64,000 nucleotides of DNA. It comes from a virus. The stretch is taken from IMG/VR virus record IMGVR_UViG_2889178456_000001; one strand, written 5' to 3'. The notes under the pieces were generated by a model. It had not been told where the DNA came from. It saw nothing but the letters and a program-made list of their open reading frames with translations, and made no database searches. This document shows, piece by piece, positions 7,788 to 48,189 of the stretch (positions are counted from its first letter, which is position 1; every line of letters begins with the position of its first letter). The translations under genes and the position numbers were made by a program.

Positions 7788-9023
7788 TTACGCCCCGTGG
7801 TCGGTTCCCAACCAAGAAACAGGTTTACCCTGCTGCTCTAAGCCCCATCTAAGCATGGTTGCAGCAGCAGCGTGATCTCTTGAGATTACGCTGCCATCTG
7901 GCAGCTCATGCGACCGATCTTGAAGCCTCTTCTTCACAGTGGCGCCCGAAACAGGGCAGCGTTGTGAGGGCTTCAAGGATCGAGTGGGCGCTATAATTAA
8001 CTCACAACCAGCTTCTTCCGCTTTGTATGTGAGGGCTTTCAAAAATGCAGATGGTGATGTGTCGAGAATTTCTCGATTCAAACCAGATTTTTGCGCGACG
8101 TTCCTGCCTGGAGCTTCTTCAGTCCCTTTGGCAGAACGAGTCATATTCGAGACAGTCAGACTTTCTGTCACGATCATCTTGTTATGCTTGACCAATTGCG
8201 ATGTCAGCTGATGAATATGGTTCTTTCGACGATTGGCGAGCTTCCTGTGGCGCTTCGCTAAGACACGCTTATGACGTTGGGCTCGCTTGGATCTTTTACC
8301 TCTTAAAGCCTTCGAAAGGTCGCGTTGAGCGTCTTTCAGATCTTCACTGGACTGCTGCCACAGCCGCTCATTCTTAACCTCTTGAGCCTCGCTACTTTCA
8401 ACACCCCAAGCCAGTGTTGCATATGTCTCAACGCCCCAGTCCAGACCTAAGGCAGGACGAGCATCTGGAGCAATTTCTCGATGTGTTTCACACTCCAGAA
8501 CCACAGACGCCCACCAGCCGTCAGATTTTCTCGTAATCGAGCAGACTTTCGGTCGGCCAGGAGTTCGTGCCTCACCCCTGATCTTGATTGTTCCGACACC
8601 AGATAGGCGCAGTCTACCATGGCGAAAACCCTCACCAGGCTTCAAGGTCCATCCATCGCCGTGACTTTTATAGCCCCATCCGCTAAACCTATCCTTAGAT
8701 TTGAAGCGCGGAAAGCCTGCCTTGCCGCTACCCTTTTTAACCCTGCGAAAGAAATGCTGATATGCTTCATCAACCCGCTTCAGTGTAACTTGCAAGGATT
8801 GAGCATTGATCGACCGATACTCAGGATCATCAGCTCTAATTTGAGTGACAGATTTTTCCTGATCTCCTTTGCGAATGGAAATTTCATGCTTTTTGTAAGC
8901 GTCCATTCGTTCTTGCAGAGCAGCATTATATAGCGCCCTGTGATTATCGTGCAGGCGTTCCAACTGCACGATTTGGGCGCTTGTTGGATACAGCTTGTAT
9001 GTGACGCGTCTTTGGTCCATCAT
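7788..9023 (-). CDS. tnpB: TnpB RNA-guided nuclease
   Basis: RRVTYKLYPT N-terminus, GFPRFKS, RuvC GLDWG / VTESL / SRDHAAA; start set by alignment with copy 2. Confidence 0.93.
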   Translation of the reverse strand: MMDQRRVTYKLYPTSAQIVQLERLHDNHRALYNAALQERMDAYKKHEISIRKGDQEKSVTQIRADDPEYRSINAQSLQVTLKRVDEAYQHFFRRVKKGSGKAGFPRFKSKDRFSGWGYKSHGDGWTLKPGEGFRHGRLRLSGVGTIKIRGEARTPGRPKVCSITRKSDGWWASVVLECETHREIAPDARPALGLDWGVETYATLAWGVESSEAQEVKNERLWQQSSEDLKDAQRDLSKALRGKRSKRAQRHKRVLAKRHRKLANRRKNHIHQLTSQLVKHNKMIVTESLTVSNMTRSAKGTEEAPGRNVAQKSGLNREILDTSPSAFLKALTYKAEEAGCELIIAPTRSLKPSQRCPVSGATVKKRLQDRSHELPDGSVISRDHAAAATMLRWGLEQQGKPVSWLGTDHGA

Positions 9024-9030
9024 CTTAGTT

Positions 9031-9447
9031 ATGTCACCAGAATCCAAATTTTACAAGCTAAATCATAGTATTTACGCACTACACTATCATTTAGTTCTCA
9101 CGACAAAATACCGTCGCAAGGTGATTAACGGACCTATTTTGGCTCGCATCGAACAATTGGTGAGGAGAAGAGCAGAAGATTGGGGTGGCGAGCTTTTGGA
9201 GATGAATGGCGAAGCTGATCATGTGCATTTGCTTTTATCTTTACCACCAACCATGGATTTGACGAAGTTCATCAACAACGTGAAGACCACGTCTTCACGT
9301 GTCATTCGAAATGAATTTTCTGATCATGTGAGTAAGTTTTACTGGAAGTCTGTTTTTTGGTCTCGCACATATTGCCTTGTGAGTTGCGGCGGTGCGCCGC
9401 TTTCCATCATCAAGCAGTATATCAAGAGACAAGATCGGCCAGATTAA
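9031..9447 (+). CDS. tnpA: IS200-type HUH (Y1) transposase
   Basis: HYHLVLTTKYRR, ADHVHLL (HUH), FWSRTY, IKQYI catalytic Tyr. Confidence 0.95.
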   Translation: MSPESKFYKLNHSIYALHYHLVLTTKYRRKVINGPILARIEQLVRRRAEDWGGELLEMNGEADHVHLLLSLPPTMDLTKFINNVKTTSSRVIRNEFSDHVSKFYWKSVFWSRTYCLVSCGGAPLSIIKQYIKRQDRPD

Positions 9448-9671
9448 TCGTTACATAATCCGCCTTCACCACCACCCTGAGGCTGCGCCTCTAGGATGGT
9501 GCACTAGCGTCGGGTCGGTAGATTTTTTATCTGCGGTCATATTCATCACTCCTGTGCACTATGAGTGATGTGGGAGTCATGGTTTAAATTACCGTTTTCC
9601 ATTCATCCAAAATTAGCCACCTTTAATCAAATGGCTGAGCCTCTATAGGCCGTTCCGGATTAGTACTCCGT

Positions 9672-10495
9672 CCTGTAGTAACCACCCAATCTCAAGATGG
9701 CTGCATGGACGCGCAACCTCGTACAATCGCCGCTCCAACCTGTAGTAGCCACCCGAAATCAGGGTAGCTGTAATTGCCTCAAAGCCTCGCGCGGACGCGG
9801 TGCGTCTTTAGTAGCCACCAATAATCGAGATGGCTTCATGAATACTGGATAAACCCGGCTATATTATTCAATCTGTAGTATCCACCATAATGATGGCTGC
9901 ATCTGCGTGCGGTCTTTCCTTAAAAAGGCGATAAACCTGTAGTAACCACTCAATACCTGTGTGGCTGCATATGCGGTCGCGCGAGCGAGGGTTAGCGACG
10001 GTCCCTGTAGTAGCCACCTACATAAGGTGGCTAGATGCCTTTACGATATCGCTCGTAATCATTGCCTTTAATAACCACCCATAGCCAGGATGGCTGCACC
10101 AGTGCGCTGGATGCTTTCTATAATCGACACCTGTAGTAACCACTCAATATCAGTGTGGCTTCATCTTTGCTGTTTGACGATCACACAACGCATGTCCTGT
10201 AGTAACCACTCAATATTAGTGTGGCTGCATCTTCGTTCCGCATGGCGCCATGTGTAACGAGCCTGTAGTAACCACCCAATCCTAGGATGGCTGCATCAAG
10301 GCTCCTGGGTGGCTCAGGAGGCAGTTCCCTGTAGTAACCACTCAATATCAGTGTGGCTGCATCCGAAAGCCAAGGCTCGCCGCGCACCTCACCCCTGTAG
10401 TAACCACTCAATATTAGTGTGGCTGCATCCAGGAGATAAATCATGAGTAAATACATACACCTGTAGTAACCACTCAATATCAGTGTGGCTGCATC
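9672..10495 (-). CRISPR. CRISPR array 1: 13 repeats (32-36 nt) plus a probable degenerate 14th at about 9607-9641; spacers about 27-32 nt
   Basis: Minus-strand repeat GATGCAGCCACACTGATATTGAGTGGTTACTACAGG; + strand starts at 9672, 9739, 9805, 9872, 9936, 10004, 10065, 10130, 10196, 10262, 10328, 10394, 10460 (period about 66); most uniform next to dinG. Confidence 0.96.
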
Positions 10496-10648
10496 CGATA
10501 GTTGCTTATAGCAATGAATTCATTGAAGGAAAAGGTATCCTGACCTACTATTTTTGTGTTTTCCATCAGAATTTGTCGCCATCGTTTTCATTTTTAGGAC
10601 CGAGACCCGACTTTGGTAAAAGCGTAGCACGAATGCGCTGAAAACAGA
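10496..10648 (-). promoter_or_regulatory. AT-rich leader of array 1
   Basis: Non-coding, between the dinG stop and the best-conserved repeat; ends ...ATCG|GATGC, as does the array 2 leader. Confidence 0.6.
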
Positions 10649-12340
10649 TCAGAAAGTCAGCAGAACCTTGGCCTTTTTATTGATCTCTTCTTTTACGCGG
10701 GACTGGAGAGCCTCAATAGAAACGACGTTGTTGCCATCCTTATGAACATAGGCGTGGCAGTTCCGGCAAAGCACAGCGACATCTTCCATCCTGGTTTCGC
10801 CAGCACCACGCAGCGCCAGAGGGTTCAAGTGGTGTACCTCGAGCTGACGAATGTGAAATATCGTGCTGTCGCAGTTACCTTGGCATTTAGTGCCGTGATG
10901 AAGGAGAGCTTCCCGACGCACATGCGGGCTGCGTTCTGCTTTAGTGGTTTGAGAAGATACCTTGCGCCCTTCGTGATAGCCCGTTTTGAATCTATCGGGG
11001 ATAAATTTCGTTCCCAGATCTTCGATACGAGGGTCACAAAACACAACCCGGCAGTAAGCGTCAGGAGAGCGAAGACCCCTGCCCTGCCCCTGGATCAGAC
11101 GACGGATCGCAGCATTCTTGCTATCAGTGTAAGAAGACATGCTTTGGGTCACCATCATGTCAGGCTCATTTTCCAGCCATTCGTCGCCCAGCGCCTTTGG
11201 AGCAGCATAGGGAACCTGAGGGAAAATGATGGTGGTGAACGGCTCGGGCACATCGAGACCGGCCCAAGCGCCAGCAGCGATCAGGATCTTGCTGTTGCCC
11301 ATGCGCTCAGCTGCCTCAGTAGTGGTCTCATCGCGCTCACGCACCACGGCTTCAGGGATCTTTTCGCCGATCTCTTGAGCCAGACGGTGCGAAGGGGTGA
11401 TGACCAGGGTGCGGCCGTCGTTTGCAGCATCCATGGCTTGCTCAACAACAGTATTCATCCACCCTTCAGTGTTGTGGGCATCATCAAGATAGAAGTCATA
11501 GTGAAGGGTGCCGTGCTTCTTCGGAGAAATCATAGTCGAGAGAGGGCTGATGCGATCAATACCCATGGCCCGCTTAAAGTCATTGAAGTTGCCACCAATG
11601 CTGAGGGTAGCTGACATGAACACGGTGCTGGAGCGGTTACTGATCTTCTTGAGGATGCGACCAGGAAGACGGCTGTAGACAGCCAGATCGCCACGAGAGG
11701 TAACACCGCACTTGCGGAACCAGGACGGCTCTTCGGTGAGCCCTTCCAAGGCAAGACGCGCCTTCGCTTTTGTCTCTGCATCGAGACCTTCCTTGGTGAG
11801 CAGAGCGCCCACGATATCCAAGGGTTTGGTTGCTTTGATGTTGAAGGCTTTCAGCTCGTCCCGGGTGATCGTCATTTCAGAGGTTAGGGCTGCGAGATCG
11901 GGCAGCATGTCGGCTTCATCAAACAGGATGGCGTCACGCTCGGTTACCCCATTGTACTGGCCCTTGAGGCGTTGGTCGAAGATCACGGAGCTGGAGGTGC
12001 AGAGCATGATATCTGCGCGCAGACACTGCTCTTTGTTCTCGAGGTATTCAGTTTCGCTATCGAAGAAAGACTTGGGGCGGAAAGCGGCTACTGTGACACG
12101 AGGGTAGATGTCTTGAATGACGGTAAGATCAGAGGAGGCAAGAAGCTGGTCTATGAGAGCGTGGGTGGGGAAGCAGATGGCAATTTTCTGTTCGGAACGG
12201 GCAGCGGCATTCAAGTAAGCGCGCGTCTTGCCGACCCCGGTAGTTGCCTCAATCAGAAGAGGGCCGGTTGGGTTTGCGAGGTGGCTCGATATGCGGTCGT
12301 TGAATTCGGTTTGTTCTTCGGAACGGAAAAGGGTTTTCAT
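10649..12340 (-). CDS. dinG: Type IV-A CasDinG helicase with C-terminal HNH nuclease fusion
   Basis: Walker A EATTGVGKT, FDEAD, MSATL, QGQGRGLR; C-terminal CQGNC...EVHHLNPL...LCRNCHAYVH. Start set at MKTLFRS. Confidence 0.92.
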   Translation of the reverse strand: MKTLFRSEEQTEFNDRISSHLANPTGPLLIEATTGVGKTRAYLNAAARSEQKIAICFPTHALIDQLLASSDLTVIQDIYPRVTVAAFRPKSFFDSETEYLENKEQCLRADIMLCTSSSVIFDQRLKGQYNGVTERDAILFDEADMLPDLAALTSEMTITRDELKAFNIKATKPLDIVGALLTKEGLDAETKAKARLALEGLTEEPSWFRKCGVTSRGDLAVYSRLPGRILKKISNRSSTVFMSATLSIGGNFNDFKRAMGIDRISPLSTMISPKKHGTLHYDFYLDDAHNTEGWMNTVVEQAMDAANDGRTLVITPSHRLAQEIGEKIPEAVVRERDETTTEAAERMGNSKILIAAGAWAGLDVPEPFTTIIFPQVPYAAPKALGDEWLENEPDMMVTQSMSSYTDSKNAAIRRLIQGQGRGLRSPDAYCRVVFCDPRIEDLGTKFIPDRFKTGYHEGRKVSSQTTKAERSPHVRREALLHHGTKCQGNCDSTIFHIRQLEVHHLNPLALRGAGETRMEDVAVLCRNCHAYVHKDGNNVVSIEALQSRVKEEINKKAKVLLTF

Positions 12341-12449
12341 CAAATGTCTCGCGGTATGCAGAAGCAAAAGGCTTCGTCTGTTCTTAAATCTTCCAAGACC
12401 AGCAAGGCTTGGCAAGAACAGTAATAGCAAACTCTAAAACAAAGTAAAG

Positions 12450-12532
12450 TCTATCCTTGATCTATTCATTAATAAAATACGCTATATCAAGGATAGATTT
12501 GGTCTGACGAGATTATCCTTAGTTATCCTTGA
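12450..12532. promoter_or_regulatory. Operator-like repeats upstream of dinG-HNH
   Basis: Perfect 12-bp inverted repeat TCTATCCTTGAT (12450-12461) / ATCAAGGATAGA (12486-12497), plus two more TATCCTT copies at about 12514 and 12524. Confidence 0.5.
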
Positions 12533-12535
12533 ACG

Positions 12536-12570
12536 GAAAGTGCCCCGGAGATTTCTCCCCGAGGCACTTC
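12536..12570 (-). terminator. Probable terminator after csf2
   Basis: Imperfect GC hairpin AAGTGCC...GGCACTT with a short U-tract on the minus strand, about 25 nt after the csf2 stop. Confidence 0.55.
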
Positions 12571-12594
12571 GTTGATCGTTAGTTGGTAGTTGTG

Positions 12595-13569
12595 TTAGGC
12601 GGCGGCCTGCACAACCTCCGAAACCTTGGCAGCATCGAAGTCCGTGGTTTCGATGGTCTCTACGATTTTGCCATCAACTTTGATGGTGGCAACCATTTTC
12701 ACGTGACCACAGCCACGAGCCTGATTGCCGCCCAGCAGCGGGTACTGGCTCAGGGTTTCCAGCCAGGTGCGGATCACGCCAACATCGGTTTCACGCGGAT
12801 TGTCAATGATCAGGAAGCCTTTCCATTCAACACCGGCAGGCAGGGCATAGAAGGAAGCCAGGTTCTTGGAAGAGACCTTCATCCCGCCCATTTCGTCTTC
12901 ATACTTCTTCAACTGAGCCTGAGCGTCAGCCAGAGCCGATTTCAGATCCTTGTTGTCCTTGTCCCTCCACAGCTTGCGCTCGATCTGCGAAACGATAGCG
13001 GCAGCAGCAGAACGCTTCTGGTTCGCAGAAGACCGGGCATAGAAAGCCTGCTGGTTTTCGTCATCCAGCAGATCGACAGCACCTTCGGTATCGTCGATAT
13101 CTTTCTTCACCACACCGAAGGCTTCCGGCAGGACATCGATCTCGGGCATCAGGTTCGACATCTTCAGACGCGATGCCATGTTCAGGCCGCAACCAAACAG
13201 GTCTGCAACGGCATTGATCTCTTTCTGACGCTCAGTGCGAGCATCGGCCAGGTTGATCGTTTCCGCAGCGGTCTCAGATGCAGCATCCTGCCCAGTAATC
13301 GCTTTATAGGCATCTTGCAGAGTGTATGCTTTACCCTCAGCAGCGGCCTTCTCCATCAGCGGGATGGCCATTGCACGGCGGGCGCTGCCACGCAGGGTGG
13401 TTGCTGGGATATAGGCAGTCTGGATCGCCTCACCATCGGCATTCAGGCCACGGGTCATGACGGGAGCACCATCCCACTTGTTTTCGCGCAGGCCCTGCGG
13501 TGTTGGGAGCTTGATGCTCAGCGGGCTCTGGGTGGTCAGGGTCAGGTCGACTTTGATGATCTTTTTCAT
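12595..13569 (-). CDS. csf2: Type IV Cas7-family backbone subunit Csf2
   Basis: RAMP features: LTTQSPLSI, YIPATTLRGSARR, DLFG, Gly loop LGGNQARGCGHV; AAAGGA RBS. Confidence 0.9.
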   Translation of the reverse strand: MKKIIKVDLTLTTQSPLSIKLPTPQGLRENKWDGAPVMTRGLNADGEAIQTAYIPATTLRGSARRAMAIPLMEKAAAEGKAYTLQDAYKAITGQDAASETAAETINLADARTERQKEINAVADLFGCGLNMASRLKMSNLMPEIDVLPEAFGVVKKDIDDTEGAVDLLDDENQQAFYARSSANQKRSAAAAIVSQIERKLWRDKDNKDLKSALADAQAQLKKYEDEMGGMKVSSKNLASFYALPAGVEWKGFLIIDNPRETDVGVIRTWLETLSQYPLLGGNQARGCGHVKMVATIKVDGKIVETIETTDFDAAKVSEVVQAAA

Positions 13570-13595: not shown

Positions 13596-14090
13596 TTAGA
13601 TTACGATGAGGCCACGGCCGTAGGCCTTGCCAGGAGTGGAGACGCCCTCTCTGAGGACAGCTTTGAAAGCGTCGAGGTCGGTGACCTTCAGAACGCCGGT
13701 GAAGTCGGTTTTGTCCATGCTGAAGCCTTTGCCTTTGGCAATCTTCTCCGGCTCGCTTGACACATGACAGGCGATGATCTCGAAACCATTAGCGCGGCGG
13801 TCGAGCCACTCTTTGCGGGAGCGCCAGTCTTTGGGAGAGAAGTACTTATGCTTGCCCCGAGTTTTCTTGCCGCAGGAAGCCCGCAATTGAAAGGAAACCA
13901 CGTCGCCCTCTTTGATGTCGCGAACAGGCACAGCATTGTTGGTCAGATCGGGGCTCTCGCTCCGCACAACGATATGGTCATCGTTCACAACATGCAGAGC
14001 GCGGCCGCCATCTGTCATTTGCTCAAGAAGCTGGTGAACAGCATACCCATCGATACCAGCGGGTTTGGGGATAAGGTGATCAAACAGCAA
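13596..14090 (-). CDS. cas6: Cas6 crRNA processing endonuclease (Cas6e-like), short
   Basis: FQLRA, EWLDRR, FTGVLKVTDLDAF and terminal G-loop GKAYGRGL; overlaps csf1. Confidence 0.82.
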   Translation of the reverse strand: MLFDHLIPKPAGIDGYAVHQLLEQMTDGGRALHVVNDDHIVVRSESPDLTNNAVPVRDIKEGDVVSFQLRASCGKKTRGKHKYFSPKDWRSRKEWLDRRANGFEIIACHVSSEPEKIAKGKGFSMDKTDFTGVLKVTDLDAFKAVLREGVSTPGKAYGRGLIVI

Positions 14091-14574
14091 CTTTAAGCTC
14101 CTTCTCGGCTTTGATTTTGGCTTTCATCATGCGCTTGTGCATGGGGGTGTTGGCTTCTTCGAACATGTTGAAGGTCTCGGTGTCGCCGGGGGAGCAGATG
14201 CGCATGACCCGGGGATCGTAGCTCAGGTAGATGTTCGAAAGCGGGAATGCGGCATTGGTGAACGTCAGGAAGCACCAAGGCTTCGGCAGTCGATCAATCG
14301 CATAGAGGAATGCCTCATGTGCTTTCATGTCCGGTTCCGTGAGCACATTGTCGTACATGAACTCAGAGTTGGTCATGAAGCCGCCGTTGTAGACCACAAC
14401 CCACGCACCCTTCATGAAGCGCTTGGTTTTCGGGTTCCCTTTGGCATCAACCTTGTCGACCATCGGGTGCGGCATTGAGAGCGCACGCTCGGTCTTTTTA
14501 ACAGGGCAGTTGATCGCAGGATCGATATCGAATTGGCCTGCAAAGTGCTCAGCCAGAAATTCAAAGGTGTTCAT
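14080..14574 (-). CDS. csf1: Probable Csf1 (Cas8-like) subunit, small
   Basis: Translationally coupled between csf3 and cas6; called mainly by position, with weak sequence cues (PKPWCF). Confidence 0.55.
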   Translation of the reverse strand: MNTFEFLAEHFAGQFDIDPAINCPVKKTERALSMPHPMVDKVDAKGNPKTKRFMKGAWVVVYNGGFMTNSEFMYDNVLTEPDMKAHEAFLYAIDRLPKPWCFLTFTNAAFPLSNIYLSYDPRVMRICSPGDTETFNMFEEANTPMHKRMMKAKIKAEKELKVAV

Positions 14575-15197
14575 GCTGCATTCTCCATCGGCATATAGCA
14601 GGCAGCCCGGTTCATGGGGTCGTAATAGCGGGGGCGCCAGGCGGCATCGACAAGAGGAAGATCACGGTTGCCTGCAAACCGATCTTCGGGAACTGGACGC
14701 AATGGATTGCCCTGATCATCCATGATGCCATCGAAATCGCTTTCTTCGATGGACCAGCCGCCTTCAACGATCTGACCGTAGCCCTGCGACCGCTTTTTGC
14801 CGAGGAAGTAAACGTCTTTCAGCAGAGCGTGGATGCCATGCATGTCGCCTTCGCAGTGCCAGCTGACCGTCGCAGTCGTAAAGGTCGGATAGGTGTGAAA
14901 GACGTTACCGCAGCCCTTACGACGCTGGATATCATACATCTTGTGGGTGCCACCGTTCTTGTTCTTCTTGATGAGATCGGGGTCCAAACGGTGTTGGCCA
15001 TGCAGACCGGCAATGAAGCCGACCTTGCCATGAATGGGGGTCTCAAGAATGGCGCTCGATGCGTGAAAGAGACCATCAGTCTGCTTCAGAGGGATGTCAG
15101 GATCGCCCTTGAGGCACATAAGGAGAGCGTCAAAGGTCATCTCTCCTTGCTTGATGAGCGGCGAGGCAAGCTGCGCCGTGATCTTGAGTTTGTGCAT
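14571..15197 (-). CDS. csf3: Type IV Cas5-family subunit Csf3
   Basis: LKITAQLASPL, TFDALL, FLGKKRSQGYGQI, RPVP, WRPRYY; start shares the GGAACTGA upstream motif with csf2. Confidence 0.87.
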   Translation of the reverse strand: MHKLKITAQLASPLIKQGEMTFDALLMCLKGDPDIPLKQTDGLFHASSAILETPIHGKVGFIAGLHGQHRLDPDLIKKNKNGGTHKMYDIQRRKGCGNVFHTYPTFTTATVSWHCEGDMHGIHALLKDVYFLGKKRSQGYGQIVEGGWSIEESDFDGIMDDQGNPLRPVPEDRFAGNRDLPLVDAAWRPRYYDPMNRAACYMPMENAA

Positions 15198-15267
15198 GTC
15201 AGTTCCGATTGTAATTCGTGTTGTTGGCTTCATAGCAAGAACAGTTCATGGTCTGCAAGTATAAATT

Positions 15268-19533: not shown

Positions 19534-20769
19534 TTACGCCCCGTGGTCGGTTCCCAACCAAGAAACAGGCATACCCTGCTGCTCTAAACCCCATCTAAGC
19601 ATAGTTGCAGCCGCAGCGTGATCTCTTGAGATTACGCTGCCATCTGGCAGCTCATGCGACCGATCCTGAAGCCTCTTCTTCACAGTGGCGCCCGAAACTG
19701 GGCAGCGTTGTGAAGGCTTCAAGGATCGCGTGGGCGCGATAATTAACTCACAACCAGCTTCTTCCGCTTTGTATGTGAGTGCTTTCAAAAACGCAGATGG
19801 CGATGTATCGAGAATTTCTCTGTTCAAGCCAGCCTTCTGCGCGACGTTCTTACCAGGTGCTTCTTCTGTGCCTTTGACAGAACGAGTCATATTCGAGACA
19901 GTCAGTTCTTCTGTCACGATCATCTTGTTTTCTCTCACCAGCTTATTGCTCAGCTGATGGATGTGGTTTTTTCGACGATTTGCCAGCTGTCTGTGGCGCT
20001 TCGCCAAGATGCGCTTGTGGCGCAACGCTCGCTTAGATCTTTTACCTCTCAAAGCCTTTGAGAGGTGTCGCTGAGCGTCTTTCAGATCGTCACTCGCCTG
20101 CTGCCACAGTCGCTCGTTCTTAAATTCTTGGGCATCGCTGCTGTCGACACCCCAAGCCAATGTAGCGTATGTCTCAACGCCCCAGTCCAGACCTGCGGCA
20201 GGACGAGCATCTGGAGCTACTTCACGATGCGCCTCACATTCCAGAACCACTGACGCCCACCAGCCGTCAGATTTCCTCGTAATCGAGCAGACTTTCGGTC
20301 GGCCAGGCGTTCGCGCCTCGCCTCTAATCTTGATTGTTCCGACACCGGATAAGCGCAGTCTGCCATGGCGGAAACCTTCGCCGGGCTTCAAGGTCCATCC
20401 ATCGCCGTGGCTTTTATATCCCCAACCGCTAAATCTATCCTTTGATTTGAAGCGTGGAAATCCTGCCTTGCCACTAACCTTTTTAACCCTGCGAAAGAAA
20501 TACTGATATGCGTCATCAACTCGCTTCAGCGTCACTTGCAAGGATTGAGCATTGATCGACCGATACTCAGTATCATCCGCTCTAATCTGAGTGACAGATT
20601 TTTCCTGATCTCCTTTACGAATGGAAATTTTATGCTTTTTGTAAGCGTCCATTCGTTCTTGCAGGGCAGCATTATATAGCGCCCTGTGATTATCGTGAAG
20701 GCGTTCTAGTTGCACGATTTGGGCGCTTGTTGGATACAGCTTGTATGTGACGCGTCTTTTGTCCATCAT
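19534..20769 (-). CDS. tnpB: TnpB RNA-guided nuclease
   Basis: Close homologue of copy 1; RuvC D/E/D intact (GLDWG, VTEEL, RDHAAA). Confidence 0.93.
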   Translation of the reverse strand: MMDKRRVTYKLYPTSAQIVQLERLHDNHRALYNAALQERMDAYKKHKISIRKGDQEKSVTQIRADDTEYRSINAQSLQVTLKRVDDAYQYFFRRVKKVSGKAGFPRFKSKDRFSGWGYKSHGDGWTLKPGEGFRHGRLRLSGVGTIKIRGEARTPGRPKVCSITRKSDGWWASVVLECEAHREVAPDARPAAGLDWGVETYATLAWGVDSSDAQEFKNERLWQQASDDLKDAQRHLSKALRGKRSKRALRHKRILAKRHRQLANRRKNHIHQLSNKLVRENKMIVTEELTVSNMTRSVKGTEEAPGKNVAQKAGLNREILDTSPSAFLKALTYKAEEAGCELIIAPTRSLKPSQRCPVSGATVKKRLQDRSHELPDGSVISRDHAAAATMLRWGLEQQGMPVSWLGTDHGA

Positions 20770-22473: not shown

Positions 22474-23175
22474 ATGACACCCCTACCCGCTGTACACCGC
22501 AGCAAGCCAGTAAACCTGGACCACTACCGTACCCTTGTTTTGAACGCCAACGCGCTTCCTCTCTCAACGACACCTTTGTCGCTATGGGGTTGGAAGGATG
22601 CAGTCGAGGCAGTCTACAAAAAACGTGTGCAGGTTCTAGAAAACTGGGATGGACCGGTAATTCGCTCGCAAAAGATGAGCATTCCGGTTCCGAAGGTCGT
22701 AATGTGCCACGAGTTCGTACCTGTCGCAAAGAAGGGCATCCCTGCCCTGTCGCGCTTGAACTGTGCTCTGCGTGATGCCTTCACCTGCGGATACTGCGGT
22801 AATAGGTTTGCTGTCAAAGATCTGACTTTCGATCACGTGGTTCCACGCTCCAAGGGCGGCCTGTCCACCTGGGATAACCTTATGATGTCTTGCCGTAAGT
22901 GCAACTGCATGAAGGGCAGCGAACCGGCGAACTACAACGGTATCCGTGGCGTCGTGCGCAAAGGTAACTTCGTGCCATTGTGGAAGCCTCGCACCCCCAG
23001 CTGGGATGAGCTCTACAAGATCGGTCTGCGCAACGTGCCTGCTGAGGTGCGAGGTGTCTTCGGTAACTGGCTCCCAGAGGCCAAAGGAGGCCGTCCAGCG
23101 CCTCTAGGTATGCGGGTCGATGCGACCCAAGGCTGGGATGACGACGGTTACTGGACTGCCGAACTAGAGCCATGA
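22474..23175 (+). CDS. HNH endonuclease (McrA-like)
   Basis: TLVLNA, RDAFTCGYCG, TFDHVVPRSKGG, WDNLMMSCRKCNCMKG. Confidence 0.9.
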   Translation: MTPLPAVHRSKPVNLDHYRTLVLNANALPLSTTPLSLWGWKDAVEAVYKKRVQVLENWDGPVIRSQKMSIPVPKVVMCHEFVPVAKKGIPALSRLNCALRDAFTCGYCGNRFAVKDLTFDHVVPRSKGGLSTWDNLMMSCRKCNCMKGSEPANYNGIRGVVRKGNFVPLWKPRTPSWDELYKIGLRNVPAEVRGVFGNWLPEAKGGRPAPLGMRVDATQGWDDDGYWTAELEP

Positions 23176-24850: not shown

Positions 24851-25483
24851 ATGAGCAAGAAGTACGGGCGCACATATCATCTACCAGGCTCACCTGGTGC
24901 CACGAGTGATGACAAGATTCTCAAGTCCCTGTCTGCTTTCGAGCAGGACGGCGGCGTTGATGTGGTGGCTACCGAAAAAATGGATGGCGAAAACACCACT
25001 ATTTATGACGGTGGCACCCATGCGCGGAGTGTCGACGGACGCTATCACCCCTCTCGGGATCGCATGAAGGCCTTCGCAGCGGGCATCTCCCCTATGTTGG
25101 CGGCCAATGAGCGCATTGTGGGCGAGTACCTCTATGCGAAGCACTCCATTGCCTATGATGGGCTGCCTCACTTCTTCATGGGGTTTGCCTGGATCAAAGA
25201 TGAGGTGATCCAATCCTGGGATGATACCATGCAGCGGTTTAGTGAGCTTGGCATCGTGCCGGTTCCGGTTCTCTGGCGCGGAAAGTTTGATATCCGTCAG
25301 ATTGATGCGCTTGTCAGCGGACTGGATCTTGAACAGCAAGAAGGCTTCGTTGTCCGGGTGATGGATGCTTTCCATGAGGACCAAATGGTAACCTCCATGG
25401 GCAAGTATGTCCGCGAAGGTCATGTTCAGACGGAAACTCACTGGATGCATCAAGAGATCATCCCAAACACATTCAAGATGTGA
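24851..25483 (+). CDS. ATP-dependent RNA ligase family protein
   Basis: KYGRTYHLP, motif I TEKMDGEN, GEYL, motif IV EGFVVR, KYVR. Confidence 0.85.
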   Translation: MSKKYGRTYHLPGSPGATSDDKILKSLSAFEQDGGVDVVATEKMDGENTTIYDGGTHARSVDGRYHPSRDRMKAFAAGISPMLAANERIVGEYLYAKHSIAYDGLPHFFMGFAWIKDEVIQSWDDTMQRFSELGIVPVPVLWRGKFDIRQIDALVSGLDLEQQEGFVVRVMDAFHEDQMVTSMGKYVREGHVQTETHWMHQEIIPNTFKM

Positions 25484-35674: not shown

Positions 35675-36762
35675 GATGCAGCCACCATGAATATGGGTGG
35701 CTACTACAGGGGGGAAGCCCGATATGCAGTGAGTTACGGCGGTGCAGCCATCCCTATGGGTGGCTACTACAGGTAGGACTGCCGACCGAAGCATTATAGA
35801 TGCAAGTGCAGCTAACCAGATATTCGGTGGCTACTAGAGAAACGTGATGATGCCGCTTACACAAACACTATGTGCAGCTACCAGGATTATGGGTGGTTAC
35901 TACAGAGGAGCAGCTGCGCTGCGCCTGCGGTGGGTATATTCAGCTACCACAATATTGGTAGCTACTACAGGTCTATTACTTTGAATGACGTGCAAGGACT
36001 TGGATGCAGCCACTCTGATTGTGGGTGGCTACTAAAGGAGAAAGTTGATTATACTGCGCATGGCTGGTGATGCAGCCATCCTGAATAAGGGTGGTTACTA
36101 CAGGTTGGAAGGAAAGACGCCCTAGTATTGAGAGAGATGCAGCCATCCTTGGGGTGGTTACTAAAGGTATCGGCGCTTGGCTTCTGCCTTCGTGAATGAA
36201 ACAGCCACCCTAGGAATGGATGGCTACTACAGTTGGGAACAGCTACGCATGCTGATGCGTCGTGATCAGCCATCAAAATAGTTGGTGGCTACTAAAGGAA
36301 GGGTGCCATTGCTGTTCCGTATTCGTCGAGTTCCAGCCATCCAAACTATGGGTGGCTACTACAGATCCCAAACGGCCTCCGCTTCGCCAAGCCAACAGAC
36401 AGCTATCCCGATTTGGGTGGCTACTACAGACTGCGAGGGCCACACGATGAGCTTGCAAAGGACGCAGCTATCCTGAGAGTGGGTGGTTACTAAAGGACGC
36501 AGGCGCTTAGAGCGTGTACGCGGGCAGATGCAGCCATCCTGAATATGGGTGGCTACTAAGGTTGGGAAGCGATGGTGCTATTTTCCTACGCGGTGCAGTC
36601 ACCCAATATATGGGTGGCTACTACAGGAGAGAACCTTCAGAGGTCTGCTGATCGCATATATGCAGCAGACCTGAGTTTGGGTGGCTACTACAGGCACATC
36701 CATTTGAGATAGTAGCCCCGGCCACTGGTGCAGCCATCCAAAATATGGGTGGCTACGAATAC
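35675..36762 (+). CRISPR. CRISPR array 2 (orphan): 17 repeats (32-36 nt), spacers about 29-32 nt
   Basis: Repeats such as GATGCAGCCACCATGAATATGGGTGGCTACTACAGG at 35675, 35741, 35805, 35871, 35937, 36003, 36069, 36136, 36198, 36264, 36330, 36396, 36461, 36527, 36592, 36659, 36727; AT-rich leader upstream. Confidence 0.95.
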
Positions 36763-36785
36763 AATGAGAACTTCCCGCTGGGGCC

Positions 36786-37244
36786 TTACAAAGAAGGCCC
36801 GCTTGACGGGTTTTCTCCCACAGGTCTGACAGAGCACAAGATCGGCTCAAAGTTACCATCAGCATTCTTAGCCATGGCAATCTGTGCCTCGACGTCTTGG
36901 AATTCAGGCTCTGTCAGATAGTAGTCACCAGCCCCGACGAAGCGAGAGACATCCTTCACATAGCTCAAGATTGCTTTCTCAATGGCAGTAGGGTCATCCC
37001 CTGATAGATCGGCATAGTGACAGCCATGATTCATCTGGGTTTCCATAAACATGCCGCCTTCAGGAGCAAACACTATCTCCATGAAGATCATGCCCACATC
37101 ACGCGTATGCATGGTAACCGCTGCCATGCGGCAAACAGCTTCGCCTTTTACATAAAGATCTTGGGAGGCATTGAAGTCCTTGAACTTCTCCTTGTGCTCT
37201 AGGAATTCCTGCGCAATTTTATCCGCAACTGCTCGATCAATCAT
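36786..37244 (-). CDS. Hypothetical protein
   Basis: 152 aa, CAGGAG RBS; tail ends PSSGPSL. Confidence 0.65.
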   Translation of the reverse strand: MIDRAVADKIAQEFLEHKEKFKDFNASQDLYVKGEAVCRMAAVTMHTRDVGMIFMEIVFAPEGGMFMETQMNHGCHYADLSGDDPTAIEKAILSYVKDVSRFVGAGDYYLTEPEFQDVEAQIAMAKNADGNFEPILCSVRPVGENPSSGPSL

Positions 37245-40797: not shown

Positions 40798-41355
40798 GGT
40801 GCCAATTTACAGAGCTTGGGTGGCTACTAAAGTTTGCAGACGAGGCAAGTCTTGCCATGGTACAGCTAACCTGAATTTGGGTGGCTACTACAGGATACCC
40901 AGAGGGCGGCCCGCAGGCCGGGGGATTCAGCTACCCTGAGTATGGGTGGTTACTACAGGATCCGGGCCAAAGTTTCGAAAGTTGGATTGGATTCAGCTAC
41001 CCGGACTATGGGTGGTTACTACAGGTTATAATCCGTCGCACAGCCCTCCCTACGAGATGCAGCTATCCTGATATTGGGTGGTTACTACAGGTAGTCTCTG
41101 CGGTGATGCTGACGCTGAATCGATGCAGCTACCCAGAATATGGGTGGCTACTATAGGGGTAAGCATCCACGTCGCTTTGATGGTCATGATGCAGCTACCC
41201 GGACTATGGGTGGCTACTATAGGGTGCCAAAAATCTGGTACCGTGGCCTAAACTGATCCAGCTACCCTAGATTGGGTAGCTACTACAGATGATACCGCAG
41301 GGTCTCTGTATCGATTTTAGTTGCAGCCATCTTGACTATGGGTGGCTACGAATAA
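40798..41355 (+). CRISPR. CRISPR array 3 (orphan): 9 repeats (35-36 nt), spacers 25-31 nt
   Basis: Repeats such as GATGCAGCTACCCAGAATATGGGTGGCTACTATAGG at 40798 (degenerate), 40859, 40924, 40990, 41056, 41122, 41188, 41255, 41320. Confidence 0.94.
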
Positions 41356-41423
41356 AATGAAGTCTTCCCGGGTTCGATCCAATGTTGCTATCTGAAATGA
41401 GTTGCAGCATTGGACGCCCGTGC

Positions 41424-46597: not shown

Positions 46598-47009
46598 TGA
46601 GACGGATTTACTTAGACTGTGATGGAGTTCTGGCTGATTTTGATCGGGCCTTCCGGGAGAAGTTTAACTGCTGTCCGGTCGACTACCGTAAGAGCGTCGG
46701 CACCGATAATTTCTGGGAAGATATTGTAGATCTGGCGCCTGATTTTTATCGCAATCTTCCGCTTATGCCTGATGCCATGGAGCTTTATATGGCAGTTAGT
46801 CACCGGCGACCGATCATTCTCACGGGATGCCCTACGGGTGGCTGGTCTGAGCTACAGAAGATCCTGTGGGGACGAGATCGTTTCCCCGGCGTACCAATGA
46901 TTGTATGTGCTTCCAAAGATAAGGGCATGTATTGCCAGCCTGGCGATGTACTGATCGACGACCGCACAAAATATGCGTACCTGTGGCGCGATGAAGGGGG
47001 CGTATTTAT

Positions 47010-48189
47010 CAGTTGCGCCGCAAGACCCCTTCCTTCAGGTGGGGGTTGTAAGGCGCGTTTCCATAGAAATAAATCTTGAATCCGGTGAATTGTCATGTAT
47101 ATTTGCATGTAATATGACAAAGACCAAGACTCTTAAGGTTCGAATTAAGGATCGCCACGCCGCACGTCTGCGGGACATGGCGAGGTCCGTAAACATGGTC
47201 TGGAACTACATCAACGAGCTTTCTGAGAGATCCATCAGAGAGCGTGGCAAGTTTCTCTCGGCTTTCGATTTACATCCATACACCAAAGGTGCGGCCAAAG
47301 AACTAGGGTTGCATTCGCAAACACCACAGCAGGTGGCCGCTGAGTATGTACGACGCAGAAAGCAATTCAAGAAGCGGCGTCTTTCATGGCGCAAAAGCTT
47401 CGGATCGAGGCGAAATCTCGGTTGGATTCCGATCAATACCAAAGCATCGTCGTGGAAGAAGGGATGCGTTTACCATAACGGAAGGTACTACCAGGTTTGG
47501 GACAGCTATGGATTGAAGCAATATACCTTCCGATCTGCATCGTTCAGTGAGGACGCGCGGGGGCGTTGGTACTTCAACGTTGTTGTTGAGTTTGAGGCTG
47601 AACAGAGCAAAGGCACCAGATCGGTCGGAGTAGATTTGGGGTGTAAGGATGCCGTAAATACCAGCGATGGTGAGAAACTCACCGGCCGATGGTATCGAGA
47701 AGAAGAAAAGAAACTGGCCGTTGCACAACGTGCCAAAAAGAGAAGGCGTGTCGCAGCTATTCACGCAAAAGCTGTCAACCGCCGAAAGGATGCGCTTCAC
47801 AAGCTGTCGCGCAAATTGGTCGATACAAATGCCGCAATCATCGTTGGCAACGTATCGTCACTTAAAATGGCTAAGACCCGTATGGCCAAGTCGGCGCTTG
47901 ACGCTGGTTGGGGCATGTTCAAAACAATGCTGGAATATAAATGCGATCACGCAGGTGTTGTTTTCGAAGAGGTCAACGAAGCCTATACTTCCCAACGTTG
48001 CTCGAGCTGCAAGGATATTCCCATCAGCAGTCCGAAAGGTATGGGCAATCTTGGAATAAGGGAATGGACATGCAGCTCTTGTGGATCGGTTCATGACCGA
48101 GACACAAACGCAGCGCTAAACATTCTCGCGCTCGGGCATGAGCGTCTCGCAGGAGGAATCCCCGTCCTTTAGGGCGGGGTGGATGTCAA
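47010..48189 (+). mobile_element. tnpB-only IS200/IS605-family element (IS1341-like), 1180 bp
   Basis: Inserted 3' of TTTAT with no duplication; left hairpin ACCCCTTCC/GGTGGGGGT; right end GAATCCCCGTCCTTTAGGGCGGGGTGGATGTCAA. Confidence 0.92.
47114..48172 (+). CDS. tnpB: TnpB with rearranged RuvC-II site
   Basis: KTLKVRIKD, GVDLG, IIVGNV (Gly for Glu), VNEAYTS, two CxxC pairs, HDRDTNAALNI. Confidence 0.92.
   Translation: MTKTKTLKVRIKDRHAARLRDMARSVNMVWNYINELSERSIRERGKFLSAFDLHPYTKGAAKELGLHSQTPQQVAAEYVRRRKQFKKRRLSWRKSFGSRRNLGWIPINTKASSWKKGCVYHNGRYYQVWDSYGLKQYTFRSASFSEDARGRWYFNVVVEFEAEQSKGTRSVGVDLGCKDAVNTSDGEKLTGRWYREEEKKLAVAQRAKKRRRVAAIHAKAVNRRKDALHKLSRKLVDTNAAIIVGNVSSLKMAKTRMAKSALDAGWGMFKTMLEYKCDHAGVVFEEVNEAYTSQRCSSCKDIPISSPKGMGNLGIREWTCSSCGSVHDRDTNAALNILALGHERLAGGIPVL

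Follow-up and report, generated by a model that had tools for sequence, protein, structure and literature searches.

The closest described counterpart of the locus analysed here is the type IV-A2 CRISPR-Cas variant. Sulfitobacter sp. JL08 was the source of its description (PMC10910872), and the 2025 classification gave it its name (PMC12669027). In JL08, the genes of this variant run in the order csf3, small protein, cas6, csf2 and dinG-HNH (Altae-Tran et al. 2023, PMC10910872), and the JL08 homologue is the only one for which small-RNA data are available (PMC10910872). Spacer acquisition has been reported for type IV-A3 arrays, which gain their spacers in trans via type I-E Cas1-Cas2, at the leader-repeat junction (Benz et al., bioRxiv 10.1101/2023.06.23.546257).

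In the type I-E arrays of E. coli and Salmonella, repeat variants form contiguous stretches, from which duplication of the adjacent repeat was inferred (Touchon & Rocha 2010, PMC2886076). A survey of 1,095 arrays with trackable repeat mutations found flip-flop patterns 3 and 4 in 248 and 165 of them, respectively, and put these down to reversal, mid-array insertion or recombination (Ou & McInerney 2022, bioRxiv 10.1101/2022.05.19.492656). Recombinational gain of spacers was tested by Kupczok et al. (2015, PMC4524480) and found in a few S. thermophilus strains.

A type IV-A2 CasDinG-HNH locus with three arrays of one repeat family

We analysed a 64,000-nt stretch of DNA from a virus record (IMG/VR IMGVR_UViG_2889178456_000001), referred to here as the window. 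Its minus strand carries an operon predicted to encode Csf3, the type IV Cas5 (14571-15233; PADLOC 2.5e-33), a 164-aa protein without a family match (14080-14574), a Cas6e-like type IV Cas6 (13596-14090; PADLOC type IV Cas6, 1.4e-17), Csf2, the type IV Cas7 (12595-13569; PADLOC 6.7e-42), and CasDinG-HNH, a Csf4 helicase with a C-terminal HNH domain (10649-12430; Pfam DEAD, Helicase_C_2 and HNH; PADLOC Csf4_2_IVA1, 8.6e-66). Relatives have a gene for a protein of 157-166 aa at the position of the 164-aa one. Judged by this gene content, namely a Csf4/DinG protein with a C-terminal HNH domain, Csf2, Csf3 and Cas6 in one operon and no cas1 or cas2 in the locus, the locus is a type IV-A2 CasDinG-HNH system.

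The gene order is the same as in JL08, and the repeats of the two systems belong to one family, being 36 nt long with a common hairpin and an 8-nt ACTAnAGG tail; their DinG-HNH proteins are 51-52% identical. They differ in that the array next to the operon, array 1, lies downstream of dinG, contains mixed repeat types and is accompanied by two extra orphan arrays, while the JL08 array (L093, 9568-10000) lies between csf2 and dinG, as in most relatives, and is composed of four identical repeats followed by degenerate terminal ones. The interval between csf2 and dinG in the window (12431-12594) measures 164 nt and contains no repeat; the position of array 1 downstream of dinG is shared with the related metagenomic contig L091, and in the relative L092 arrays are present on either side of dinG (38-476 and 2382-2671). 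Between the cas locus and array 2 there are also genes for an HNH endonuclease that stands alone and for a protein of the RNA ligase family (22474-23175 and 24851-25483).

Of 401 genomes from the Rhodobacteraceae and 4 from the genus of JL08, that of JL08 alone was found to contain the system, and the DinG-HNH gene is found in 1 of the 401 sampled genomes of JL08's family. Neither Cas1 nor Cas2 was detected among the 46 open reading frames scanned across the window, and Cas1 gave no match in the complete genome of Sulfitobacter JL08, whose type IV-A2 system is the one studied experimentally. The serial Cas1-Cas2 duplication against which an earlier note on this DNA had measured array 1 therefore presupposes an integrase acting in trans. 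Array 1 resembles the type IV-A3 arrays of Benz et al. in this respect, being a type IV-A array without adaptation genes of its own that yet appears to grow at the leader-repeat junction.

In array 1 (9607-10495), 14 repeats (34-36 nt) alternate with 13 unique spacers (27-32 nt) at a period of 66 nt. Its leader-end unit, composed of a 36-nt repeat and a 30-nt spacer, is unlike those of type I-E arrays. Two further arrays of the same repeat family, array 2 (35675-36762; 17 repeats, all different) and array 3 (40798-41355; 9 repeats), lie on the plus strand and are thus oriented opposite to array 1. The repeat family yields 29 matches in the window against 0 expected by chance, so array 1 is not a chance feature. 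No spacer is common to the three arrays.

Spacer 8 of array 1 (9972-10003) agrees at 30 of 32 positions with a 17-kb plasmid of Sulfitobacter indolifex (NZ_CP084958.1), and no other spacer of array 1 has a credible counterpart in the plasmid or phage collections; the phage collection returned no matches to the spacers, and no spacer targets a sequence within the window. Spacer 3 (10298-10327), which adjoins repeat 4, contains a perfect 6-bp hairpin (CTCCTG ... CAGGAG), and its 9-mer AGCCACCCA is complementary to the 3' arm of many array 2 and array 3 repeats, a coincidence with an estimated chance of about 1 in 6 over the whole spacer set. The distal end of array 1 abuts an IS200/IS605 pair (7788-9447; tnpA on the plus and tnpB on the minus strand), and two further TnpB genes are present in the window (19534-20769 and 46973-48172). 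An involvement of the neighbouring IS200/IS605 TnpA in shaping array 1 was considered and dropped, as there was no evidence for any role.

crRNA strand, repeat hairpin and leader of array 1

Read on the minus strand, the repeat forms a hairpin of 8 bp, after which comes the 8-nt tail ACTACAGG, in the position of the 5' handle. The 29 distinct 36-nt repeats in arrays 1-3 provide 232 stem cells, of which 219 (94.4%) pair in this sense, 40 of them as G-U; on the opposite strand 180 of the 232 pair, one as G-U. The terminal repeat (9607-9641) is degenerate and is followed by a terminator-like T run. Furthermore, in L091, which encodes a 90% identical DinG-HNH, the first repeat occurs at the matching place after an interval about 80% identical to the one between the DinG-HNH stop codon and repeat 1 of array 1 (10496-10648); the L091 contig stops inside this first repeat. 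These four observations, the tail after the hairpin, the pairing bias between strands, the degenerate terminal repeat and the L091 leader, agree with one another and support a crRNA encoded on the minus strand and a leader at 10496-10648, the side on which the earlier note had placed it. Constant repeats, unique spacers and an RNA-level hairpin with an 8-nt tail give array 1 the predicted features of a Cas6-type class 1 array. No sigma-70-type promoter is predicted in the leader, and Rfam contains no family for the repeat.

Repeat order at the leader end

Repeats are numbered here from the leader, and base positions within the repeat are given in the crRNA sense (minus strand). The six leader-end repeats start, in plus-strand coordinates, at 10460, 10394, 10328, 10262, 10196 and 10130, and their plus-strand cores are, in the same order, ATATCAGTG, ATATTAGTG, ATATCAGTG, CCAATCCTAGGATG, ATATTAGTG and ATATCAGTG. 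The variants claimed to alternate from the leader inward over 10130-10495 (C, T, C, divergent, T, C on the plus strand) are thus present exactly as described, and the pattern extends further into the array, to 9936-9971.

Five of these repeats share a derived hairpin, which we call the D type, defined by C11 and by A12 and A22, an A.A mismatch where the family has C-G. Repeats 1 (10460-10495) and 3 (10328-10363) are identical and carry G15 (C on the plus strand), and repeats 2 (10394-10429) and 5 (10196-10231) are likewise identical and carry A15 (T on the plus strand). Repeat 6 (10130-10165) has G15 together with a private change, C5A (GGCTTCAT in place of GGCTGCAT); A5 also occurs in the first repeat of L091. 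Repeat 4 (10262-10297), the divergent one, has the flanks of repeats 1, 2, 3 and 5 and, at positions 11-22, a family-consensus type of core whose stem is fully paired. The D-type hairpin is the weaker of the two (-6.2 kcal/mol, as against -11.1 kcal/mol for repeat 4). At stem positions 12/22 of repeat 1, the A.A mismatch stands where L091 (2476-2511) has U-A and the family consensus has C-G, and this mismatched hairpin has nonetheless been propagated five times in array 1.

The D type also appears in an older repeat with A12 and A22, repeat 9 (9936-9971); between it and the leader block lie two repeats that are not D, repeats 7 and 8 at 10065 and 10004. Elsewhere in the window and in the fetched relatives it is absent, apart from a partial form in the first repeat of L091, in which A22 is paired with U12. 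The presence of the D type in repeats 1, 2, 3, 5, 6 and 9 with non-D repeats between them makes serial duplication combined with independent point mutation insufficient as an explanation. Together, the divergence of repeat 4 and the non-contiguous D type require some recombination-like event, and at least one more non-serial event must be invoked for the D type of repeat 9, on the far side of repeats 7 and 8.

The C/T alternation itself carries less information. It corresponds to G15 versus A15, a single transition in the 7-nt hairpin loop, which is the most variable region of the repeat across the family; A15 is found in repeats 2, 4 and 5, and G15 in repeats 1, 3 and 6. The five D-type repeats have three private changes in total, two of which are this same G15 to A15 transition, and a simple model puts the chance of such a recurrence at about 0.04. 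The wobble-neutral stem sites 7/27, 9/25 and 11/23 are split about evenly between G-C and G-U and toggle repeatedly in all arrays of the family, indicating that single sites flip readily. The C/T alternation is thus weak evidence on its own.

Array 1 therefore contains a minority repeat state that recurs non-contiguously, as in flip-flop patterns 3 and 4, and it is like the arrays of Ou & McInerney in that a variant appears, disappears and reappears along one array. It is unlike them in showing a multi-base replacement of the core with unchanged flanks, which suggests a short patch rather than a single-site flip, and in belonging to a type IV-A2 system without its own adaptation module. The suggestion that the pattern is exceptional does not hold, as flip-flop repeats occur in 413 of the 1,095 trackable arrays (bioRxiv 10.1101/2022.05.19.492656).

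The core of repeat 4 and its flanks have different relationships

Repeat 4 differs from its block-mates at 5-6 positions, whereas these differ from each other at 0-1; were the changes due to point mutation, the Poisson tail for at least six private changes would be 4e-5 to 6e-4. All of the differences fall within positions 11-22, the upper stem and loop, so that 5-6 of the 12 core positions and 0 of the 24 flank positions are affected. The probability of such clustering in the core ranges from P = 0.0025, if changes are uniform over the variable positions, to P = 0.03, if they are weighted by variability. The flanks (positions 1-10 and 23-36) are identical in repeats 1-5 and one base off in repeat 6, against a mean flank distance of 4.3 over all pairs of repeats in arrays 1-3. 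Outside the leader block, only 1 of 25 repeats has the same flanks as repeat 4. The identical flanks indicate that repeat 4 is part of the leader-end serial block and that its core alone has been overwritten.

The claimed misfit to serial duplication thus stands for the cores of repeat 4 and of repeats 7-9, but not for the flanks of repeats 1-6, which form a contiguous block. In this, the flanks behave like the repeats studied by Touchon & Rocha, and the hairpin core does not.

Over the whole repeat, repeat 4 has two equally near neighbours, repeat 5 of array 3 and the distal repeat 13 (9672-9707), the latter with 4 differences in 36 positions; the resemblance of the odd repeat to the distal one, as originally noticed, is therefore borne out. 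None of the fetched sequences contains a donor with the repeat 4 core, the best candidates having 3 mismatches over 19 nt or 2 over 12 nt (repeat 9 of array 2). The clustered multi-base difference between identical flanks is the signature of short-patch conversion or of template switching; it is found here without an identifiable donor. Two other origins were considered and rejected. Self-correction of a quasi-palindrome does not account for the repeat 4 core, as the new stem keeps a T.G pair that DNA templating would not, and duplication of a three-unit block (G, A, G and X, A, G) is incompatible with the spacers, which differ.

Tests of serial order add little at this level of saturation. 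Caterpillar-tree parsimony and a permutation of adjacent distances give P = 0.11 and 0.09 for array 1, a weak signal of serial order from tests that have little power at this saturation, and the same tests, equally limited in power by saturation, give no signal for array 2. Site pairs with all four gametes are numerous in every array, at 34 of 78, 71 of 91 and 5 of 21 in arrays 1, 2 and 3, respectively, and in sequences of 36 nt such counts reflect recurrent mutation and recombination inseparably.

Arrays 2 and 3 and the arrays of relatives

A mosaic of core and flanks is also seen in array 3, where the flanks are identical within the pairs 3/4 and 6/7, and repeats 4 and 7 share a core while differing at three flank positions. 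These two repeats (40990-41025 and 41188-41223) are non-adjacent and have identical 12-nt cores 198 nt, or three units, apart. In array 1, repeats 2 and 5, both with A15, are likewise three units apart; with two cases only, this may be coincidence.

Arrays 2 and 3 end in homologous terminal repeats (36727-36790 and 41320-41383), whose tail is ACGAATA and not ACTACAGG. Their trailers are alike over about 16 nt (AATGA...CTTCCCG), after which the flanking sequences diverge. The homologous terminal repeats and trailer indicate that the two arrays are of common origin, though they have no spacer in common.

The leader ends of related arrays are homogeneous. L100 has 17 identical repeats followed by 2 variants, L094 has 4 identical repeats followed by variants, the array upstream of dinG in L092 has 6 identical repeats, and L095 has 3 identical repeats followed by 21 that are nearly all different; the JL08 array described above has the same arrangement. 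The type IV-A2 array of L095 (8451-9986; 24 repeats) forms a natural intermediate between such canonical arrays and arrays 2 and 3, which are hypervariable. Together, the repeat sequences of these relatives point to the usual leader-end duplication, followed by decay that is fast relative to acquisition.

No related array suitable for a comparison of spacer order was found in the collections searched. The window had no nucleotide match in the plasmid collection, where the sole protein match was an unrelated HNH gene, and a peptide-pattern scan of genome contigs identified no relative. A degenerate repeat pattern matched 90 loci in the genome contigs, with a single match at each of the 80 listed, which is consistent with chance. 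In metagenome contigs, a 19-nt D-type motif gave 0 matches, and a protein scan yielded relatives at 52-55% identity only. A comparison of the translated array frame with 5.8 billion proteins returned no other array that had been called as a gene.

Origin of the mixed leader end

We hold with moderate confidence that the leader end of array 1 grew normally, and that the pattern seen today results from a later short-patch exchange of the core of repeat 4 and from a loop transition in two repeats. An integrase supplied in trans would have inserted spacers at the leader-repeat junction, duplicating the first repeat and leaving a contiguous block, repeats 1-6, with common flanks and the derived A12.A22 hairpin. 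Later, the 12-nt core of repeat 4 (positions 11-22) would have been replaced by a core of the family-consensus type, from a donor that would lie outside the window. The mechanism is likely to have been gene conversion over a short patch, or template switching from one hairpin repeat to another, for which the conserved 10-nt and 14-nt flanks would provide the homology; against this explanation, 10 and 14 nt are short for RecA-dependent exchange. The G to A change at position 15 (plus strand, C to T), which repeats 2 and 5 have in common, may have arisen twice or by patch copying of this kind. Of the recombination or gene conversion proposed in the earlier note, what remains is a recombination-like event at the core of repeat 4, and the C/T alternation adds little to it.

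A different reading, which we consider doubtful, is that an array lacking its own Cas1-Cas2 gains whole repeat-spacer units from other arrays of its own family by recombination within the repeats. Such capture would fit a system for which neither the scanned window open reading frames nor the JL08 genome contain adaptation genes, and a replicon that has three arrays of one family, in which the nearest-neighbour repeat is often in another array and in which arrays 2 and 3 have their terminal repeat and about 16 nt of trailer in common; for S. thermophilus, moreover, spacer gain by recombination was inferred (PMC4524480). Repeat 4, however, agrees in its flanks with its neighbours and not with any likely donor, the three arrays share no spacer, and five near-identical repeats at the leader end are the product expected of duplication. 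The arrays of relatives are canonical, and a mosaic of two serially grown parent arrays would require about five alternating crossovers. Kupczok et al. dealt with exchange of spacers between strains, whereas in array 1 no spacer exchange is visible and the exchange is confined to the repeat core. The proposal that repeat-spacer units had been shuffled or captured is therefore not sustained, and the homogeneous leader ends of relatives, together with the lack of shared spacers, also make a special, non-canonical route of array growth unlikely.

Point mutation alone, with independent substitutions in place and selection restoring the stem of repeat 4, is an improbable source of the pattern. In its favour, the C/T change is a transition within the loop, the wobble-neutral sites of the stem toggle in all arrays, and old arrays such as that of L095 are near saturation. 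Substitutions would, however, have to produce 5-6 changes in repeat 4 against 0-1 in its block-mates (P <= 6e-4) and none in its 24 flank positions, with three of the changes being exact returns to family-consensus bases, when one step, from A12 to U, would have been enough to repair the pair, which is the state seen in L091.

Insertion of spacers by Cas1-Cas2 at internal repeats, by which position in the array would cease to reflect age, is very unlikely, even though mid-array insertion is among the explanations offered for non-canonical repeat patterns. Ectopic integration of this kind duplicates the repeat that it hits, so that types stay contiguous; a consensus core between D types is then impossible, and identical flanks with a different core cannot be produced. 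Least credible is an assembly or base-calling artefact at array 1, and misassembly in particular is unlikely on internal grounds: with 13 unique spacers and a 36-nt repeat, ordinary reads suffice to fix the order, six differences that cluster and yet leave the hairpin perfect do not have the pattern of errors, the repeat core is free of GANTC, GATC and CCWGG methylation motifs, and the contig measures 819,584 bases.

Implications for repeat tracking and for type IV-A2 arrays

The flip-flop behaviour of repeats has already been described, and the addition made here is the dissection of core versus flanks. Spacer order is widely used as a timeline of infection and for strain typing, uses that assume strictly serial growth. 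Array 1 combines two different histories in one locus, in that its flanks keep the serial record and its hairpin core appears to have been rewritten. If this is general, the tracking of repeat variants should rely on the flanks and disregard the core, and some of the published flip-flop cases may be core patches and not rearranged spacers.

Apart from this split between core and flanks and the pair of hairpins that it has produced, array 1 is ordinary. That pair, with an A.A mismatch in one hairpin and a fully paired stem in the other, occurs naturally side by side and offers a ready test of the tolerance of Cas6.

A more far-reaching and rather unlikely idea is that the hairpin core is a module swapped within an array and between sister arrays in type IV-A2 replicons without Cas1-Cas2, through template switching promoted by the hairpin, and that such swapping, rather than age alone, would be the source of the hypervariable arrays 2 and 3. 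If true, this exchange could be selected, with the lower identity among repeats protecting irreplaceable spacers from loss by recombination.
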